Virus record (IMG/VR): IMGVR_UViG_2721755676_000005
Location: 1 to 7,647 of that record
Strand: one strand, 5' to 3'
Length of the DNA: 7,647 bases
From: a virus
Taxonomy: Duplodnaviria; Heunggongvirae; Uroviricota; Caudoviricetes
Within the stretch, counting starts at the first letter, position 1, and each line of letters begins with the position of its first letter. The notes under the pieces were generated by a model, which did not search any database, was not told where the DNA came from, and worked only from the letters and a program-made list of their open reading frames with translations. The translations under genes and the position numbers were made by a program. Shown piece after piece: positions 1-7,647 of this stretch.

Positions 1-405
1 ATGGATCAGGTCGTTGTTTTTCAAAAGATGTTTGAGCAAGTGAGAAAAGAGCAAAACTTCTCCTGGTTTTATTCAGAATTAAAACATCACCGTATTGCAC
101 ATTACATTTATTATCTGGCTACGGATAACATCAGAATTATTACTCACGATGACACGGTTTTGTTATTAAGAGGAACCAGGAACCTGTTAAAAGTTAGTAC
201 GACCAAGAACCCTGCTAAAATAAAAGAGGCCGCATTGCTTCATATTTGCGGAAAATCTACATTTCGGGAATACTGTTCAACACTAGCAGGCGCGGGCGTT
301 TTCCGGTGGGTTACTGATGTTAATCATAACAAACGCAGTTACTACGCCATTGATAATACGCTTTTATATATTGAAGATGTAGAAAATAATAAACCATTAA
401 TCTAG
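1..405 (+). CDS. ycgX: Small DUF1398-family protein, YcgX-like (134 aa)
   Basis: ATG at 1-3, uninterrupted 134-codon ORF. Length and position (upstream of iraM, near icdC/mcrA) match the ycgX locus of E. coli K-12 as I recall it. Family assignment is from memory and synteny, not a visible motif. Confidence 0.55.
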   Translation: MDQVVVFQKMFEQVRKEQNFSWFYSELKHHRIAHYIYYLATDNIRIITHDDTVLLLRGTRNLLKVSTTKNPAKIKEAALLHICGKSTFREYCSTLAGAGVFRWVTDVNHNKRSYYAIDNTLLYIEDVENNKPLI

Positions 406-612
406 CTAAAGTTGGATGCTTAAGAAATGCTTCATAATTCAGTAAGGCATTAGCATAATGGGAATAAAAGTACAGAGACTATCCCTATGGATGATAAATA
501 CTGTCCTTTTATTGCTACCCATAAATAATCACCATGCCAATACTATCAAATTGATATTTGAAATGTGATCACTTGACTTTCTATACGTTATTTTATAACG
601 GTTAATATATTT

Positions 613-663
613 ATAAAAACAACGGGTGTGCCATACGCCCGTTTCAATACTTAACGCACATGT
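613..663. repeat. Orphan copy of the ~50-bp icd-terminator-like repeat, including an imperfect hairpin (AACGGGTGT-GCCAT-ACGCCCGTT at 621-643)
   Basis: Aligns with 1474-1522 at roughly 80% identity with one indel (ATAAAAACAACGGGYGTG..ATACGCCCGTTKCAATAYT..ACATGT). The stem has one G-U-type mismatch relative to the perfect copy. No coding sequence is attached to it. Confidence 0.5.
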
Positions 664-1100
664 GTTTTGGTTTAGTCATCATCCAGTTATATGTATTTTA
701 GCCAGGAACAGGTTAAACCTTTCCTATATAACTCAAAAATTGAAACCTTATTCTCATGTCATGCTTATATTCATTATTATCGTTATATAAAAAGGCAACC
801 ATAATGTTTAGCAAATTGGCACAAAGTAGCATAAAGGCTATGTTTTAATTACAGGATGTTCAGTCATTTGAATGTATAACATTATAGCTAAACAAATCTA
901 AAACGAAGTGAATAATTTATTGTTTTCACTAAATCTCATTTTGTTTAACATCCATTGAGATTCCTTGCTTTAAATTTTGTTTTATATAAGCAATCGTTTT
1001 AATTAATTTATTTTTTGAAGGGGTAATATACTCATATGCAAAATAAAGAAATGAACATCCAAATGAACTATATTAAATACCGTGGGATAAGACATAACAA

Positions 1101-1424
1101 ATGAAGTGGATAGTAATTGACACGATAATTCAACCTTCATGCGGCATATCTTTTTCAGCCATATGGGGTAATATGAAAATGATCATCTGGTATCAATCTA
1201 CTATATTTCTCCCTCCTGGCAGTATATTTACACCGGTTAAATCTGGAATTATCCTTAAAGATAAAGAATATCCTATTACTATTTATAACATCGCACCATT
1301 CAACAAGAATTTATGGAGTCTACTCAAAAGCAGTCAAGAGTGTCCTCCAGGAGAAAGCAAAATAACAAATAAATGTTTGCATAATAGTTGCATTATAAAA
1401 ATATGCCCATATGGGCTCAAGTAA
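1101..1424 (+). CDS. iraM: Anti-adaptor protein IraM (inhibits RssB-mediated RpoS degradation), 107 aa
   Basis: ATG at 1101, 107-aa ORF. The translation (MKWIVIDT...[13 protein letters not shown]...KICPYGLK) matches my recollection of E. coli IraM almost residue for residue. Low-GC gene in an AT-rich island next to icdC, as in K-12. Confidence 0.75.
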
Positions 1425-1470
1425 AGGGTTTTATATAAATATGCTCGATATGCTATTAATAATACCTACA

Positions 1471-1503
1471 TAAATAAAACAACGGGCGTGTTATACGCCC
1501 GTT
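1471..1503 (-). terminator. Rho-independent terminator of the displaced icd 3' end
   Basis: Perfect 9-bp stem AACGGGCGT / ACGCCCGTT with a 5-nt loop at 1481-1503. On the minus strand it is followed by GTTTTATTTA (1480-1471) and sits 24 nt downstream of the icd-frame stop codon at 1527-1529. Confidence 0.6.
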
Positions 1504-1526
1504 GCAATATTAAACACATGTAGTGA

Positions 1527-1694
1527 TTACATATTCTTGATGATCGCGTCACCAAACTCTGAACATTTCAGCAGTTTAGCACCTTCCATCAGACGTTCGA
1601 AGTCATAGGTTACGGTCTTCGCGTTGATTGCGCCTTCCATACCTTTAACAATCAGGTCAGCCGCTTCAGTCCAACCCATATGGCGTAACATTAG
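1527..1694 (-). pseudogene. icdC: icdC: displaced 3'-terminal fragment (about 55 codons) of the isocitrate dehydrogenase gene, the e14-type attachment remnant
   Basis: Minus-strand translation reads (L)[54 protein letters not shown], which is the Icd C-terminus. An in-frame TAA lies immediately upstream at 1695-1697, so there is no 5' coding body. e14 is known to integrate in the 3' end of icd. Confidence 0.8.
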
Positions 1695-1749
1695 TTAGAT
1701 GACTAAATCGTAACTATTTGACATAGCAACATAATTTTACTAATTTGCA

Positions 1750-1786
1750 TATAACTCATTAGCCCTTAGCATTTCTATAACTCATT
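1750..1786. promoter_or_regulatory. Two perfect 11-bp direct repeats TATAACTCATT (1750-1760 and 1776-1786); candidate integrase arm-type binding sites just inside the prophage junction
   Basis: Exact 11-bp direct repeat, 26 bp start to start, within about 60-90 bp of the icdC/prophage junction. Lambda-family integrases bind direct-repeat arm sites flanking the core. Function is inferred only. Confidence 0.3.
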
Positions 1787-1924
1787 GATTATAAACATGT
1801 GTTTTTGAGTTTTGATAACCATTTTTAGCATAAAAATAGCAGTTAACATTTGCAGAAGTTAAGATCAGAGAAAATTTTTACCCTGTAGGGTATTACGTCT
1901 TAAATGTGACTTTAATAAATAATT

Positions 1925-2758
1925 TTATTTCTGTAATCGGTTTATATTAACGTAAAGCATCTCGATTAGTTCTTTTGCATTTTTACTATAGTGCAATTCT
2001 CTATGGCAATTCGGACAAAGGGCAACACAGTTATCTGTTGTATCAGCACCACCTGAAGACAGGGGAATTACATGATGCACTTCCAAATATGGGTTTCCAT
2101 CATTTAAATAAAACGGAGCATTTTTACCACAGTTTTCACATATACCTTTACTTTGCTGTAAAATCCAAGCTTTTACCATCGGGTCTCGGACATAAACTTT
2201 TTGTAGTCTTTCTACCTCAACTGGTTTCCTGGAGCCCTCGGGTTGACTCAACGTTTTCTTAATTAATTTACTAACCCTCATATTCAGAAGCGATTCATCA
2301 TCTGTAGGCTGTGAAAGCTCTGATAGTTCTCCACGTATTATAGACGCCCAAAAACTGTCACTATAAATACCTGGGACATTTATCAATATTCGTTTCGTTC
2401 TATTGCCGGAAGGAATTTCCTTTCTCCCCGTACGACTAAAATAAGCCTGATAACCACACATCTTCAAGCGTATATCGCGGGGGCTATTACCAATCAAAGT
2501 AAAATATTCACCAGGATGGATTTTTCTTTCATCCAAAGAATGCATATGTTTTCTGACTGATGATGACGCCAGATATACTACGACTTGGGATACACCAGAA
2601 TCAACCAACCGTTCAATGATATAATCAAGAGCGATATTGTAATCTTTGTTTCTGTCACCCGGCCCCCACGACTCAAGGATTAGACCATAAACACCATCCT
2701 CTTCACCTATCGAACACTCAGCTTTCAGTTCAATTCCATTATTATCAAAAACATGCAT
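1925..2758 (-). CDS. mcrA: McrA, HNH-family 5-methylcytosine-specific (type IV) restriction endonuclease, 277 aa
   Basis: ATG at 2756-2758 (minus strand), 277-aa ORF. The C-terminal HNH/zinc-finger motif is visible: CENCGKNAPFYLNDGNPYLEVHHVIPLSSGGADTTDNCVALCPNCHRELH. The translation matches my recollection of E. coli McrA, and the position next to pin and icdC is as in e14. Confidence 0.93.
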   Translation of the reverse strand: MHVFDNNGIELKAECSIGEEDGVYGLILESWGPGDRNKDYNIALDYIIERLVDSGVSQVVVYLASSSVRKHMHSLDERKIHPGEYFTLIGNSPRDIRLKMCGYQAYFSRTGRKEIPSGNRTKRILINVPGIYSDSFWASIIRGELSELSQPTDDESLLNMRVSKLIKKTLSQPEGSRKPVEVERLQKVYVRDPMVKAWILQQSKGICENCGKNAPFYLNDGNPYLEVHHVIPLSSGGADTTDNCVALCPNCHRELHYSKNAKELIEMLYVNINRLQK

Positions 2759-2864
2759 AATATTAATCTTTAATCAATTTTTCACGACAATACTACTTTT
2801 ATTGATAAAATTGCAACAAGTTGCTGTTGTTTTATTCTCTTTTGTACAAAAAGTGTCTTTAACT

Positions 2865-3419
2865 TTATTTATCCCCTGCAGGAAACCTCTTATACAAAGT
2901 TGACACACCAACATCATAGATAATCGCCACCTTCTGGCGAGGAACTCCTGATGCAATTAATCGTCCGGCCTGTTCCCATTGTTCTGGTGTAAGTTTGGGA
3001 CGACGTCCACCAATTCGTCCCTGTGCGCGAGCAGCTTCCAGTCCAGCTTTTGTTCTTTCAACAATCAGTTCACGCTCCATTTCAGCCAGGGCACCCATCA
3101 CATGAAAGAAAAAGCGCCCCATTGGGGTACTGGTATCAATTGAATCCGTCAGACTACGAAAGTTGATGCCTCGTTCGCGCAACTCCTCCACCAGCACGAC
3201 AAGATGCCGCATACTGCGCCCCAGCCGGTCCAGTTTCCAGACCACCAGCGTGTCACCTGCCGATAATGTCCTGAGCAGTTTTTTCAGTCCCGGCCTTTCG
3301 GACTTTGTACCGCTTATCTTGTCTTCAAAAATCAGCTCGCATCCTGCACAGTTCAGCGCATTACGTTGTAGATCTGTGTTCTGGTCATTTGTTGATACGC
3401 GTACATAGCCAATAAGCAT
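2865..3419 (-). CDS. pinE: Serine recombinase DNA invertase, Pin (Hin/Gin/Cin family), 184 aa
   Basis: Translation MLIGYVRVSTNDQNTDLQ...VVWKLDRLGRSMRHL...GINFRSLTDSIDTS.PMGRFFFHVMGALAEMERELIVERT...GGRRPKLT. with a C-terminal HTH. Catalytic Ser is in the RVSTNDQ motif. I take the ATG at 3417-3419 as the start: it is preceded by GGGGGA about 7 nt upstream, whereas the ORF-track start at 3455 adds 12 atypical residues. Confidence 0.92.
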   Translation of the reverse strand: MLIGYVRVSTNDQNTDLQRNALNCAGCELIFEDKISGTKSERPGLKKLLRTLSAGDTLVVWKLDRLGRSMRHLVVLVEELRERGINFRSLTDSIDTSTPMGRFFFHVMGALAEMERELIVERTKAGLEAARAQGRIGGRRPKLTPEQWEQAGRLIASGVPRQKVAIIYDVGVSTLYKRFPAGDK

Positions 3420-3445
3420 GGTAGATCCCCCTGACAAAAGCAGGA

Positions 3446-3967
3446 ATGATGCCATTTGCTCGTTATTTCTGCATTTTCATAAACGTTGGTTTGGGAGAAG
3501 GCTCTGCATTACCTGTTGGTGTGCCTGTTCCATGGCCTTCAGCCACACCGCCAACAGGCTGGCTGAAATGCAACGGTGCGGCATTTTCTGCTGAAGAATA
3601 CCCGGAACTGGCAAAGGCTTATCCAACAAATAAATTACCTGATTTACGCGGTGAGTTTATTCGTGGCTGGGATGACGGGCGCGGTATTGATGCAGGACGT
3701 GTTTTATTGAGCATTCAGACAGGGATGCTGGAAAAACACCGCCATATTGTTGTTGCAAATGATGGTTACGACACAAAAGATGAATGGGAACTGGCTACGA
3801 TTTTCAAAAAGACATACACACAAGGACGGGGACTTGATGCCACAAATACAGGAGGGAGTCTGATCCCATCACCGACACTTCATTCACGAGGGAGTATCGG
3901 TAATACTGGCGGGAATGAAACCCGTCCACGAAATATTGCATTTAATTTTATCGTGAGGGCTGCATAA
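3446..3967 (+). CDS. stfE: Tail-fibre variable C-terminal cassette (StfE-like), currently in the unfused (silent) orientation; true cassette coding begins at the crossover site, 3474
   Basis: Translation ...GLGEGSALPVGVPVPWPSATPPTGWLKCNGAAFSAEEYPELAKAYP...LPDLRGEFIRGW...ETRPRNIAFNFIVRAA shows the conserved hallmarks of Mu S / lambda Stf-type fibre tips (PxPWP motif, C-terminal NIAFN.IVR). The TAATG overlap couples it to the following tfa gene. Confidence 0.75.
   Translation: MMPFARYFCIFINVGLGEGSALPVGVPVPWPSATPPTGWLKCNGAAFSAEEYPELAKAYPTNKLPDLRGEFIRGWDDGRGIDAGRVLLSIQTGMLEKHRHIVVANDGYDTKDEWELATIFKKTYTQGRGLDATNTGGSLIPSPTLHSRGSIGNTGGNETRPRNIAFNFIVRAA
3474..3499. repeat. Pin crossover site, pin-proximal (26 bp): TTTTCATAAACG-TT-GGTTTGGGAGAA
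   Basis: Two 12-bp half-sites around a 2-bp core, matching the hix/gix/cix/pix pattern (TTNTCNNAAACC-NN-GGTTTNNGANAA). The inner half-site is the exact reverse complement of the inner half-site of the 5365-5390 site, and the core dinucleotide is inverted (TT versus AA). Confidence 0.7.
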
Positions 3968-4569
3968 TGGATAACGCCGTATTAAATAGCGAGCTTATTG
4001 CCACGAAGGCGGGGAATATTACCGTCTATAACTATGATGGTAAAACTCGGGAATATATTTCCACTTCAAATGAATATCTTGCCATTGGTGTCGGTATCCC
4101 TGCATATTCCTGTTTAGATGCCCCTGGCACACATAAGGCGGGTTATGCTATCTGCCGTTCGATGGATTTAAACTCATGGGAATATGTGCCAGATCATCGC
4201 GGTGAAATTGTCTATAGCACCGAAACAGGAGAATCGAAAGAAATCACAGCTCCGGGTGATTATCCTGAAAATACAACCACTATCGCCCCGTTAACGCCAT
4301 ACGATGAATGGAATGGTGAGAAATGGGTGACAGATACCGAGGCACAGCACGGCGCAGCAGTAGATGCAGCAGAAGCACAGCGCCAGTCGCTGATTGATAC
4401 TGCAATGGCCTCCATCAGTCTGATTCAACTGAAATTACAGGCCGGACGGAAGCTGACGCAGGCAGAAACAACCCGCCTTAACGCTGTGCTGGATTACATT
4501 GACGCGGTGACGGCAACAGATACCAGCACAGCGCCGGATGTCATCTGGCCTGAATTGCCGGAGGCGTAG
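3967..4569 (+). CDS. tfaE: Tail fibre assembly chaperone (TfaE-like), 200 aa
   Basis: ATG at 3967 overlapping the stop of the upstream fibre cassette. C-terminal ...DTSTAPDVIWPELPEA motif is typical of Tfa/U-type chaperones. Position immediately downstream of a fibre tip. Confidence 0.8.
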   Translation: MDNAVLNSELIATKAGNITVYNYDGKTREYISTSNEYLAIGVGIPAYSCLDAPGTHKAGYAICRSMDLNSWEYVPDHRGEIVYSTETGESKEITAPGDYPENTTTIAPLTPYDEWNGEKWVTDTEAQHGAAVDAAEAQRQSLIDTAMASISLIQLKLQAGRKLTQAETTRLNAVLDYIDAVTATDTSTAPDVIWPELPEA

Positions 4570-4984
4570 GCCATTCAATATCTGGCGCACCGGAAGTATC
4601 GATCAGCTCCAGTGCGTCCAGATAATCCAGCCACAAATTATATTGCGCCAGTTCCTCACCTTTCAGACGACCAATAGCGGCTTTACCAGGCCATTGCTTA
4701 CCGTTCATGTATTCGTTAGCCTGGTTAATTAGTAGCTGTCTTTCTGATTCAGTAATTTCAATAAGCTCTTCATGAGTAGGTGGAGGAATATCTGCCCACG
4801 CAGGTAGTCCATCCTCTCCGGCAATACGGACTTTTCCTTGTGGCGGTTCAGCCATAAACTCACTGACAATATTTTGATTCACCTCCTTAGCATCTGATAA
4901 ATCCCATCCTACTGATTTATATTTATCAATCATATCCACAGGGAAAAAAGCATTATGCCTGGCACTATAAACATATTCGTTCAT
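4541..4984 (-). CDS. tfaP: Tail fibre assembly chaperone (TfaP-like), about 147 aa from the ATG at 4982-4984
   Basis: Minus-strand ORF ending ...DTSGAPDIEWPTPPAIQAR, parallel to the TfaE C-terminus. The ORF-track start at 4993 is a GTG; the ATG three codons in has a good AGGGTG Shine-Dalgarno 6 nt upstream. Lies immediately downstream of the minus-strand fibre gene. Confidence 0.75.
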   Translation of the reverse strand: MNEYVYSARHNAFFPVDMIDKYKSVGWDLSDAKEVNQNIVSEFMAEPPQGKVRIAGEDGLPAWADIPPPTHEELIEITESERQLLINQANEYMNGKQWPGKAAIGRLKGEELAQYNLWLDYLDALELIDTSGAPDIEWPTPPAIQAR

Positions 4985-5004
4985 ATAAATCACCCTGAAT
5001 AAAA

Positions 5005-5661
5005 TTACTCACCAACAGCCCACCAACTGTAATGCATAGATACCGTGTCACTGGTTGATGACGTTCTGTAAGCAGAATTAAAGCCGGTTAACGTAGGGCC
5101 TTCTGCAGTCATCACGAACCCTCGCCCAGCGCCTAAAGGCGCACCGCCATCACCAGAATGGGTAAGAATGGCGCAGTCCGCTTTTTTAGGGAAAGGGATA
5201 GGAAATGTAATCCTCATTGTTTGCGTCGATAATTTCGGCATAGCCTCGCCTCGACCATATTGCAGAATTTTACCGTTGGGTAATTTCATCCATCCATCAC
5301 CACTGGCAAAAGAGGCCATGTCCGGTATCTGATTTTCCCCTGTCCCTACATCCCGTTTTGCCGCTTCTCCCAAACCAAGGTTTTCGAGAGCCGTTTTCAC
5401 CGTGCCATCCGATTTGATATCACCAAACGGATTCTTGCGGCTTAACAGCAGAGCACGAAGCGCGGTAAGCAACTGGTCGTTTCGCCCCTTCTCCAGGCTG
5501 GCACCGGATGCCTCCACCACGCTGCAAAGCTCCTCCTGCAACATATCAAAGTAGTCATCATCGAGATCGGTGGCAGGTGTGCCAGTCTGGGGGTTACCAC
5601 GGGTACCCACCCGCCTGGTGTGCAACCTTCGCCAGGCACCGGGAGGCACCCGGCACCACAA
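5005..5661 (-). CDS. stfP: 5'-truncated side tail fibre gene (StfP-like): short constant-region stub fused in frame across the crossover site to the second variable C-terminus
   Basis: Translation contains ...[35 protein letters not shown] (resembles the end of the constant region of lambda Stf / P2 H fibres) followed by a distinct variable tip. The ORF-track start at 5661 is a TTG with an in-frame stop just upstream, and the first ~35 residues are not fibre-like, so the real N-terminus is missing or uncertain. Confidence 0.65.
5365..5390. repeat. Pin crossover site, pin-distal (26 bp): TTCTCCCAAACC-AA-GGTTTTCGAGAG
   Basis: Inverted partner of the 3474-3499 site, sharing 15 bp of identity (TTGGTTTGGGAGAAG on the complementary strand) through the core and inner half-site. 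It encodes ...ALENLGLGE... in the fibre frame. Confidence 0.7.
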
Positions 5662-5682
5662 CTTTATGCTGTGTGTAGTCTT

Positions 5683-5729
5683 GGCGGTACCAGCTTGTAC
5701 CCTTGCTTCCGGCTGGTACCGCCCTTTTT
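5683..5729 (+). terminator. GC-rich hairpin (12-bp perfect stem GGCGGTACCAGC / GCTGGTACCGCC, 17-nt loop) followed by CTTTTT; candidate plus-strand intrinsic terminator
   Basis: Perfect 12-bp inverted repeat at 5683-5694 and 5712-5723 with a T5 run at 5725-5729. No plus-strand gene is obviously upstream, so the role is unclear (may be a relic, or block read-through into xis). Confidence 0.3.
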
Positions 5730-5818
5730 ACAAAACAGAGAAGAGTATCCCCGGATGACGGGGTCATAACCCGATCCATCCTGATAATTGTGGCCACAGG
5801 TGCTCTTCTCTGTTTTGT
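5730..5818. repeat. Perfect 16-bp inverted repeat pair (ACAAAACAGAGAAGAG at 5730-5745 and CTCTTCTCTGTTTTGT at 5803-5818) flanking a 57-bp spacer that contains a CCCCG/CGGGG mini-hairpin
   Basis: Read directly from the sequence. Lies between the truncated fibre stub and xis. Function unknown. Confidence 0.5.
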
Positions 5819-5891
5819 GGAGAAACTAACCGACCTTGCAGGGTCGATATGCAGAGACTGAACAGTTAGTGAAGTAACAAGGTGATCGCAT

Positions 5892-6137
5892 ATGCTTCAA
5901 ATGTTAACTCTTGAAGAATGGGCCTCTGAAAAATACAGAAGTAATCCTCCAAGTGTGTCCACATTGCGTCGTTATGCTAAGCAGAATTTATTTTGCCCAC
6001 CGGCCATGAAACAAGGTCGGTTATGGCGAGTGCGTGAGGACGCTGAGTTAGTTGGGGAGTTGGTAACACCAGTAATCAAGAAAAATGACTCATTACTTTT
6101 GCAACGGATCTTGAGTGATGGCAGCCAGACCGCGTAA
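5892..6137 (+). CDS. xisE: Excisionase (XisE-like), 81 aa
   Basis: ATG at 5892 with an AAGGTG Shine-Dalgarno 7 nt upstream. Small basic protein immediately upstream of the integrase and overlapping it by about 20 nt, as lambda xis/int do. Sequence agrees with my recollection of e14 XisE. Confidence 0.85.
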   Translation: MLQMLTLEEWASEKYRSNPPSVSTLRRYAKQNLFCPPAMKQGRLWRVREDAELVGELVTPVIKKNDSLLLQRILSDGSQTA

Positions 6138-7245
6138 GAATAATGTTTCAGTACCTAACTTATATCCGCTTTATAGTAGGAAGGTAAATAAAGTCTATTG
6201 GCGGTATAAGCATCCAGTAACAGGGAAATTTCATGCGTTGGGAACTAACGAAGCTGAAGCCATCGCTATTGCCACTGAAGCCAATACACGCCTGGCTGAA
6301 CAAAGAACCCGACAGATTCTGGCTATCAGTGACAGGATCGCAACCTGCAAAGGAAAAGCGATCACAACGTCAACCTGGTTAGATCGCTATCAAGCGATCC
6401 AGGATGATAGGCTCAAAAGTGGTGATATAAGACTCAATACCTATAAGCAAAAAGCCAAACCAGTATCCTTGCTCAGAGAACGAGCAGGAATGAAGTTGAT
6501 CTCATCCGTTGATGTCAGAGATATAGCACAATTGCTTGATGAGTATATTACAGCTGGACAGCCTAGAATGGCCCAAGTCGTAAGGTCTGTATTAATCGAT
6601 GTGTTTAAGGAAGCACAGCATTATGGCGAAGTTCCACCAGGGTATAACCCTGCTCTTGCGACGAAGCAACCCAGAAGGAAAATCACCCGTCAACGCCTCA
6701 GCCTGGAAGAATGGCAAAAAATTTTTGATATCGCAGACTCCACTCATCGTTACATGGGAAATGCCATGCTGTTAGCGCTGGTTACTGGCCAACGTTTGGG
6801 AGATATATCCAAAATGAAATTCAGCGATATCTGGGATGATCATCTGCATATCGAACAGGAAAAAACCGGCAGCAAAATAGCCATTCCTCTTTCTCTTCGT
6901 TTGAATGTAATCAACTGGAGCCTGCGCGATGTTGTAGCTCGCTGCCGTGACTATGTAGATAGTCCATACTTAGTACATTTTTTCAGATCAACTTCACAGG
7001 CAGAACGTGGGGCACAAGTAAAAGCTAATACTCTGACTATGAATTTTAGCAAAGCAAGGGATCTGGCTGAAATTGATTGGGGTGAAGGAACCCCAGCAAC
7101 CTTTCATGAGCAACGTTCATTGTCAGAAAGGCTATACAAAGAACAGGGAATAGATACTCAGAAATTGCTGGGACATAAAACCCAGCAACAAACTGATCGT
7201 TATAACGATCTCCGCGGAAAAAATTGGGTAACTTTAACAATATGA
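6118..7245 (+). CDS. intE: Lambda-family tyrosine integrase (IntE-like), about 375 aa
   Basis: Tyrosine-recombinase catalytic signature is visible: R in ...LVTGQRLGD..., H-x-x-R in FHEQRSLSERLY, then LLGHK and the catalytic Tyr in TDRYND. I take the ATG at 6118 as the start (the ORF-track start at 6115 is GTG). Confidence 0.9.
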   Translation: MAARPRKNNVSVPNLYPLYSRKVNKVYWRYKHPVTGKFHALGTNEAEAIAIATEANTRLAEQRTRQILAISDRIATCKGKAITTSTWLDRYQAIQDDRLKSGDIRLNTYKQKAKPVSLLRERAGMKLISSVDVRDIAQLLDEYITAGQPRMAQVVRSVLIDVFKEAQHYGEVPPGYNPALATKQPRRKITRQRLSLEEWQKIFDIADSTHRYMGNAMLLALVTGQRLGDISKMKFSDIWDDHLHIEQEKTGSKIAIPLSLRLNVINWSLRDVVARCRDYVDSPYLVHFFRSTSQAERGAQVKANTLTMNFSKARDLAEIDWGEGTPATFHEQRSLSERLYKEQGIDTQKLLGHKTQQQTDRYNDLRGKNWVTLTI

Positions 7246-7356
7246 ATATTTACATGTATTAGTCGCGACTTGATCTGACACTGAGCCTTGAAAGGTTGAG
7301 AGTTACCGGTTTTGATATGGGTGTCGAATCCTTATACAAAACACGAGGTAACTCTC

Positions 7357-7647
7357 ATGCTTCATACTACCAATCCCGTTATCAAACACAAAACCGGTTT
7401 GCTCAATCTGGCTGAAGAACTCAGCAACGTATCAAAAGCCTGTAAAATCATGGGCGTTTCGCGTGATACGTTTTATCGTTACCGCGAACTGGTCGATGAA
7501 GGTGGTGTGGATGCGCTGATTAATCGTAGTCGCCGCGCTCCTAACCTTAAGAACCGTACCGATGAGGCAACTGAACAGGCTGTTGTTGATTACGCCGTCG
7601 CTTTCCCGGCACACAGTCAGCACCGGACGCAGCAACGAGCTGCGTAA
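7357..7647 (+). CDS. IS-element transposase, N-terminal HTH region (resembles IS481-like DDE transposases); partial or interrupted at the window edge
   Basis: ATG at 7357 with GAGGT 7 nt upstream (the ORF-track start at 7312 is TTG). Translation ...SKACKIMGVSRDTFYRYRELVDEGGVDALINRSRRAPNLK... is a typical transposase N-terminal HTH followed by the RSRRP motif. Family assignment is from memory only. An in-frame TAA occupies the last three bases of the window. Confidence 0.55.
   Translation: MLHTTNPVIKHKTGLLNLAEELSNVSKACKIMGVSRDTFYRYRELVDEGGVDALINRSRRAPNLKNRTDEATEQAVVDYAVAFPAHSQHRTQQRAA

Follow-up and report, generated by a model that had tools for sequence, protein, structure and literature searches.

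The cryptic prophage e14 of Escherichia coli K-12 lies within icd and carries its pin-mcrA and int-xis modules at opposite ends, an arrangement on which the original prediction for the present locus was built and which holds for the 15.2-kb element, except that lit, ymfE and ymfD lie beyond int. SOS-induced, Int-mediated excision of e14 is established (Greener & Hill 1980, Brody 1985 and Hill 1989, cited in PMC13626634). For the K-12 PinQ/StfE2 system, a recombinase-activated inhibition of phage has been reported, with the 125-aa StfE2 blocking adsorption of T2 (Kirigo et al. 2025, NAR; PMC12529663).

The window analysed here, the whole 7,647-nt stretch at positions 1 to 7,647 of the Caudoviricetes record IMGVR_UViG_2721755676_000005, could be identified from its ORF map, and from complete E. 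coli genomes compared with it, as the chromosomal ycgX–iraM–icdC region of that species, followed by an e14-type element in reversed orientation relative to K-12 (Table 1). The element starts at position 1692 and continues past the window: in SZQ1, whose genome is identical to the window, the IS481-family pseudogene (in the position held by lit in K-12) and a 281-aa ORF are followed by the 3′ end of icd, giving a phage-derived interval of 7,913 bp, compared with 15,204 bp in K-12 e14. The att repeats are intact: over 52 bp or more they have the same sequence, and this block stops exactly at each of the element boundaries. The icd 3′ end found at the far boundary matches icdC at 92% identity. 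Between these boundaries lie mcrA, pinE, an invertible P segment, a promoterless fibre gene, a ymfH remnant, xisE and intE. The icd att duplication, int/xis, pinE with its P segment, and mcrA nearest to icdC are all features of the e14 family, and identify the element as an e14-family prophage integrated in the 3′ end of icd without its central module; the central immunity, replication and morphogenesis genes have no counterpart in the window (in K-12 ymfK, ymfT, ymfL-N, beeE, jayE, ymfQ), so the element is a deletion derivative and no canonical e14. The minimal island of the original prediction is accurate with respect to McrA, the inversion switch and intact xis/int, but leaves out the IS481-family pseudogene and the 281-aa ORF that are also present.

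Table 1. Features of the window, with positions counted from its first letter.
Feature	Position	Strand	Remarks
ycgX	1-405	+	
iraM	1101-1424	+	
icdC	1527-1691	-	displaced original 3′ end of icd; att junction, mcrA side; annotated partial isocitrate dehydrogenase
mcrA	1925-2758	-	type IV methylcytosine-directed HNH restriction endonuclease
pinE	2865-3419	-	serine DNA invertase
pin-proximal fibre fragment, stfE-type variable cassette, 172 aa	3449-3967	+	annotated tail fiber protein
pin-proximal crossover site (pix) of invertible P segment	3481-3500	.	inverted repeat with 5364-5383
tfaE, tail-fibre assembly protein	3967-4569	+	90.5% identity with K-12 TfaE; Pfam Caudo_TAP
tfaP-type tail-fibre assembly protein	4541-4984	-	Pfam Caudo_TAP; 43% identity with K-12 TfaP
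stfP without codons 1-21	5005-5605	-	K-12 StfP match from residue 22; Pfam Gp53-like_C
stfP part: variable gp53-like domain	5005-5363		
stfP part: pix site	5364-5383		
stfP part: constant region	5384-5605		
deletion junction	5601-5605	.	GGGTA; TA (5604-5605) exact in both parents
ymfH-region remnant (leader upstream of xis)	5606-5861	+	~59 nt gone from 5′ end
long hairpin / inverted repeat within ymfH remnant	5725-5823	+	~25-bp stem
xisE, excisionase	5892-6137	+	Pfam Exc
intE, tyrosine integrase	6118-7245	+	Pfam Arm-DNA-bind_1 and Phage_integrase, near full length
IS481-family transposase pseudogene, 5′ part	7357-7647	+	Pfam HTH_29/HTH_28; annotated frameshifted

The interval between the fibre gene and xis is very probably the scar of a single illegitimate-recombination deletion in an e14-family (SfV-like myovirus) prophage at icd, a case of ordinary prophage decay. 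In local BLAST comparison with K-12 e14, minus-strand homology to stfP stops at window position 5605, equivalent to nt 63 of K-12 stfP and within the GC-rich range of 5560-5660 where the end of fibre homology had been placed, and plus-strand homology to ymfH/xisE/intE begins at 5601/5604, ~59 nt inside K-12 ymfH, as is also apparent base by base. The GC content of this stretch is 0.58, and its sequence is that of the native stfP constant region and ymfH; from 5601 onward the ymfH remnant is 100% identical to that of strain USMARC-51408, and 88-93% identical to K-12. Base-by-base alignment resolves the breakpoint: the stfP parent reads …CCACGGGTA up to the breakpoint and AAACC beyond it; the ymfH parent reads …TGTGGATA, then CCCACC; and the window reads …CCACGGGTACCCACC across the junction, or equivalently …CCACGGGTA followed directly by CCCACCC…. 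The crossover falls within a 2-nt TA, inside an imperfect GGGTA/GGATA; TA is all that the two parents have exactly in common there.

In K-12, where the e14 fibre gene does not lie beside xis, 6,241 bp of sequence, holding ymfI to ymfQ, separate the two breakpoints, and positions 7323-13563 of the K-12 locus (L003) have no counterpart in the window. In TUM1880, which carries an apparently complete prophage at icd and is colinear with both junction flanks, the breakpoints lie 29,619 bp apart, the join connecting position 8046 to position 37666 (coordinates of L004); the interval between, 8047-37665, holds immunity, replication, lysis, HK97-type head and contractile-tail genes, none of which occurs in the window. 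The expectation that the whole central module is absent is thus borne out against both references.

With TA alone in common between the breakpoints, and with pix-like and att-like sequences looked for at the junction and not found, the event is best described as illegitimate, microhomology-level recombination, and no Pin or Int event. A site-specific accident, with the deletion made by Pin at a quasi-pix site or by Int at a secondary att site, is very improbable. Invertases of the Pin family use quasi-sites, and deletion endpoints do fall at pix in SC487 and ~63 nt from pix in CFSAN061772; however, 220 bp separate the window junction from the nearest pix site, the one remaining pix-like match falls within intE and has 3 mismatches, and kilobases lie between the junction and the att identity block. 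In the illegitimate-recombination model, a crossover at the 2-nt TA would have placed minus-strand stfP, from codon 22 on, head-to-head with the plus-strand ymfH leader, entered ~59 nt from its beginning. The deleted DNA would have comprised the LexA-like repressor and cro, the genes for replication, lysis, head and tail, and, for the fibre gene, its start codon and operon context; the outcome would be a 7.9-kb non-inducible remnant, whose retained content would reflect ordinary decay with loss of harmful or useless lytic genes, and no designed minimal island. The final junction could also have been reached by successive deletions instead of a single event.

Short inverted repeats and prophage paralogues are known to confuse assemblers, and one contig in the present data set (L017) contains a false join across Ns, such that an assembly artefact, like a natively small satellite-like element, had to be considered; either is scarcely credible for this junction. 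Of 5,426 complete genomes, 3 carry the junction at 100% identity; they come from different projects, with swine, chicken and sludge as isolation sources. The 206-aa fusion ORF protein that spans it has exact matches on 13 contigs from separate NCBI assemblies; among the eight of these contigs listed, the same fusion-xis-int arrangement is found with 99.91-100% identity over the overlap with the window (6.6 kb). Recurrence in independent genomes and assemblies rules out an assembly artefact, and answers the question of whether the junction is unique or common: it is a rare allele. A native small element is contradicted by the genes truncated on both sides of the junction, which continue in close relatives, and a phage satellite (PICI/P4-like) by the element's ORFs, which include no replication/primase, regulatory or packaging-hijack (packaging-redirection) genes beside int.

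Across 21 kb of common locus, 3 SNPs separate the window lineage from its nearest relative, USMARC-51408, which carries a different, overlapping deletion, in which the 3′ end of stfP is joined to cro and ymfK…ymfH are kept. Each of the two lineages holds DNA absent from the other, which argues for two independent, recent deletions from a larger common ancestor, and supports the suggestion, made in the original prediction, that the deletion in the window lineage is recent. No earlier description of reduced e14 variants was found in the literature searched.

The window fibre gene matches K-12 StfP from residue 22 on, and its N-terminus consists of antisense ymfH codons with no ATG. It had been termed a truncated stub, and truncated it is, but only 21 N-terminal codons are missing, from a fibre gene that is itself short in this family when intact (209 aa in K-12, 256 aa in EC05); EC05 retains the intact StfP N-terminus MHRIDTKTAQKDKFGAGKNGF. 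The late operon upstream of the fibre gene has been lost entirely along with the start codon, leaving the gene head-to-head with xis across ymfH remnant sequence; the distance to xis, whose start at 5892 is confirmed by the ORF map, had been estimated at ~230 bp, which is correct from the end of the ORF, but from the junction to the xis ATG it is 286 nt. A crude consensus search of 5000-6200 on either strand identified no sigma-70-like sites, and promoter and terminator scans of 2700-6200 gave nothing above chance, although xis-int or the fusion ORF may have cryptic promoters. Lacking a start, a promoter and a baseplate for attachment, the gene would no longer be expressible as a fibre. The NCBI annotation pipeline PGAP prolongs the stub to a TTG at 5625, creating the 206-aa fusion ORF; the annotated 206-aa ‘gp53-like/hypothetical protein’ arose from the deletion as an artefactual fusion, and the annotated ‘ymfH’ (marked ‘frameshifted; incomplete’) is a truncated non-coding leader. 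A role of ymfH as a real gene was considered and rejected: its K-12 frame is unconserved in seven relatives, and substitutions in the hairpin loop are mostly non-synonymous. The hairpin within the remnant has a 16-nt perfect inverted repeat and a minimum free energy of −48.4 kcal/mol (z = −6.5), with arms invariant in 8 lineages and a variable loop; it is native to e14 and no product of the deletion. No Rfam family matches any part of the window, hairpin included.

At the decapitated fibre locus, the inversion switch is preserved in its recombination sites. The 15-nt pix core TTGGTTTGGGAGAAG occurs exactly at 3486-3500 and 5364-5378 only (2 in the window, 0.19 expected), the two crossover sites lying in inverted orientation around the P segment, and an identical core has been reported for K-12 (PMC12529663). 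The pin-proximal fibre fragment has its first ~12 codons outside the invertible segment, contains a Pfam Collar domain and is 63.5% identical to K-12 StfE. The 5′ region of pinE is intact; Fis-dependent recombinational enhancers of this family usually lie in the 5′ region of the invertase gene. No fixed promoter with a constant N-terminal exon was found outside the segment.

In nature the segment is found both ways round: the tfa alleles and cassettes of the window are inverted in EC05, and one contig that itself bears the deletion junction (L019, GCA_036697535.1) has the flipped joint at its end, running from the stfE variable part through pix into the fibre constant region. At this contig end 192/192 positions match the flipped joint, and the sequence departs from the native joint right after pix, indicating that both P-segment orientations were present in that culture; as judged from this contig, Pin inversion is shown to be still active in the window lineage. 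Contig L017, in which a P2-like invertase, sheath and tube seem to adjoin the P segment, was discarded, its join crossing Ns at a scaffold gap. In silico inversion of the window fuses the pin-proximal start (MPFARYFCIFINVGLGE…) to the gp53-like domain, producing a 136-aa StfE2-like ORF ~99% identical to the natural EC05 allele, with 1-2 residues differing according to where the crossover is placed; 136-aa forms dominate the 90% cluster of this protein in public data. The effector domain of the window is ~31% identical to K-12 StfE2, and at this identity the T2-blocking phenotype is not transferable to the window allele.

The restriction, excision and integration genes are well preserved. McrA is identical to K-12 at 277/277 aa (Pfam HNH); PinE at 180/184 aa (97.8%; Pfam Resolvase and HTH_7); full-length XisE at 79/81 aa (97.5%); and IntE, of equal length, at 351/375 aa (93.6%). 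McrA is the sole defence call made by PADLOC (mREase_IV, E = 6.5e-203), with Pin, the fibre fragments and the neighbouring 281-aa ORF giving no defence-family match. The LexA-like repressor region and the early-left promoter region upstream of xis-int are missing; xis-int is probably outside SOS-responsive upstream control, with excision reduced or deregulated and the SOS-inducible excision of K-12 e14 probably lost or altered here, and the element, whose xis/int coding sequences are intact, is only putatively mobile.

Independent deletions at the same locus provide context for what has been kept. At least six lineages with six different junction sets have lost the core and kept mcrA-pinE and xisE-intE (6/6). 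In TUM1880 (L004) coordinates the window lineage has its junction at the join given above, USMARC-51408 joins 7483 to 35663, EC05 joins 8123 to 37782, and CFSAN061772 joins a point about 63 nt beyond pix to 34529; SC487 has one endpoint at the pix site and the other about 90 bp from xis; and K-12 e14 differs from TUM1880 by two separate internal deletions. Most of the six were found by ranking matches that cover both window ends (within 4.3 kb), a procedure that favours maximal deletions. A small sample collected by int only is more heterogeneous: 22-250 and GF161 carry apparently complete prophages, FT130 is decayed, its pin being truncated and mcrA replaced by a DUF262 gene, and one IS-riddled element has a frameshifted int. 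Genome counts, uninformative as to selective retention, were 329 for the mcrA-pin end, 495 for xis-int and 824 for a 16-kb late module, the ends being counted separately and inflated by K-12 laboratory derivatives, and the late-module figure including prophages at other loci.

These data bear on an adaptive reading, offered as one possibility in the original prediction, in which selection keeps McrA, a Pin-switchable StfE2-like receptor-masking protein and Int/Xis, and lineages converge on a minimal island. At least six independent deletion histories preserving the same end modules, the position of the window, EC05 and SC487 endpoints within a few hundred bp of those modules, the survival of both pix sites with ongoing inversion, the publicly common 136-aa form matching the EC05 allele, and the T2 adsorption block reported for K-12 StfE2 (PMC12529663) are all consistent with it. 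The same pattern is, however, expected in part from the ascertainment bias of the ranking; the int-only sample includes complete prophages, a truncated pin without mcrA and a frameshifted int; the end counts are unequal and inflated by laboratory strains; the variable domain is only ~31% identical to K-12 StfE2, whose effect derives from one study with plasmid over-expression; and the lineage is rare (3/5,426 genomes). Selective retention is accordingly not demonstrated, and convergence under selection is an unlikely account of the locus, with the stronger proposal that the ~8-kb mini-e14 is a convergently selected, still-mobile defence islet, combining McrA restriction, a Pin-toggled receptor-masking StfE2-like protein and Int/Xis for loss or transfer, somewhat less likely again. 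The EC05 and SC487 endpoints, near the fibre start or pix and near xis, could hint at selection or a mechanistic hotspot over random decay, and selection for the retained core is possible; the data as a whole are consistent with a series of stochastic decay steps in which lytic genes are purged.

Under the preferred reading of ordinary decay, the window element taken alone is one lineage's deletion allele of a cryptic prophage familiar from textbooks, and its main use lies in correct annotation. The icd locus more broadly offers a series of decay stages found in nature, whose largest members are complete SfV-like prophages of ~37 kb and whose smallest are 7-10-kb remnants, and the near-clonal pair with different deletions makes it a handy site for measuring the rate and routes of prophage domestication; the series could also probe whether modules of Pin switch and fibre fragment persist for phage defence, as claimed for K-12. 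Internal deletion of a cryptic prophage is an ordinary phenomenon, and the added value of the present case, a modest one, is the icd decay series together with a Pin switch still at work in a decapitated fibre locus.

Compared with known systems, the window shares with PinQ/StfE2 a conserved pin-proximal start (MPFA[R/C]YF.IFINVGLGE), its flipped ORF measuring 136 aa vs 125 aa in K-12, whereas its effector domain is a different allele with ~31% overall identity. As in the Hin/Gin/Cin/Pin switches (Mu G, P1 C, e14 P), a serine invertase adjoins a ~1.9-kb invertible segment, in which inverted crossover sites enclose two alternative fibre C-termini and their chaperones, and both orientations exist in nature; unlike in those systems, the constant part is decapitated, such that the switch no longer chooses between two expressible fibres. 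The ‘short tail fiber’ genes of Shigella phages SfI/SfII/SfIV/SfV are ~93% identical to the window fibre constant region. The intact TUM1880 prophage is colinear with the element at both ends: the mcrA-fibre side is 95.8% identical over 4.1 kb, and the ymfH-xis-int side 90.7% identical. It also has the 29.6 kb that the element lacks, which encode immunity, replication and lysis functions, an HK97-type head and a contractile tail. With K-12 e14 (15.2 kb, in icd) the 7.9-kb element shares the integration site, the icd/icdC duplication, the end modules, the P-segment architecture and the pix core; it differs in lacking ymfI-ymfQ (6.2 kb) and stfP codons 1-21, in carrying different alleles of the stfP/tfaP/stfE variable cassettes, and in having an IS481-family pseudogene and a 281-aa ORF in place of lit-ymfE-ymfD.

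Inversion of the P segment, the Pin-invertible part of the fibre cassette, is recorded within the window lineage itself: contig L019 (GCA_036697535.1), which bears the deletion junction joining stfP to the ymfH remnant, has an end that matches the flipped form of the P-segment joint at 192/192 positions. With junction and flipped joint on one contig, both orientations were present together in the culture sequenced under that accession, and this coexistence shows that Pin-family inversion is active in the lineage. On contig L017 (GCA_005383705.1), the element's P segment is connected, across a run of Ns that marks a scaffold gap (5569-5629), with P2-like prophage genes for an invertase, sheath and tube; this join was rejected as a scaffolding error, probably arising from the ~80% identity of the invertase genes.

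The gp53-like variable domain of the cassette matches tail-fibre genes of P2-like phages at 91-92% DNA identity (pro483, P2 from an O157:H43 strain and Citrobacter phage Omnitron), and 136-aa forms of its protein cluster are also recorded in Klebsiella pneumoniae, together indicating that fibre cassettes are exchanged across unrelated myoviruses and genera.

Upstream of xisE, a long inverted repeat is predicted to fold into a hairpin (stem ~25 bp, MFE -48.4 kcal/mol, z = -6.5), the arms of which are invariant across 8 e14 lineages, with loop and flanks ~13-15% divergent; pairing at the two arm substitutions is retained solely via G-U wobble. No matching family was found in Rfam. The K-12 'ymfH' reading frame lacks conservation, and the hairpin is on this basis probably a structured non-coding leader element.

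Features of the window and of related e14 elements
Feature	Coordinates	Strand	Remarks
Flipped joint	L019 6061-6252		corresponds to window 3481-3565 joined to 5364-5490
gp53-like variable domain	window 5005-5389	-	DNA match to P2-like phage tail-fibre genes
Long hairpin-forming inverted repeat	window 5725-5823	+	within ymfH remnant, ~70 nt upstream of xisE
IS481-family transposase, frameshifted	window 7357-7647 and beyond, L001 15356-16397	+	directly downstream of intE
int-to-attL slot	L001 15356-17309		window lineage: IS481 pseudogene + 281-aa ORF
int-to-attL slot	L003 2868-5589		K-12: lit/ymfE/ymfD
int-to-attL slot	L006 13444-16730		CFSAN061772: nucleotidyltransferase + Cap15-family receptor
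int-to-attL slot	L005 10650-13263		SC487: DUF4326/DUF488/dual-OB genes
int-to-attL slot	L011 21516-23890		323_BP0014: AAA ATPase + HNH gene
int-to-attL slot	L009 21529-25170		FT130: 3.6-kb 'DNA-binding protein'
Deletion endpoint at pix crossover site or within ~63 nt	L005 about 8840-8955		SC487
Deletion endpoint at pix crossover site or within ~63 nt	L006 6986-7048		CFSAN061772

Among e14 relatives, the int-to-attL slot, between intE and icd, carries different cargo in each lineage, and the icdC-proximal slot holds mcrA or, in FT130, a DUF262 gene; the two look like a pair of defence-gene hotspots. The IS481-family pseudogene of the window lineage, which occupies the position of lit in K-12, is older than both the window's deletion and the different, overlapping deletion of the sister strain USMARC-51408, because it is common to the two.

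Unlike the window's deletion, those of the reduced e14 elements of SC487 and CFSAN061772 have an endpoint at or near pix, the crossover site of the P segment, raising the possibility of invertase-associated rearrangement in these two lineages.
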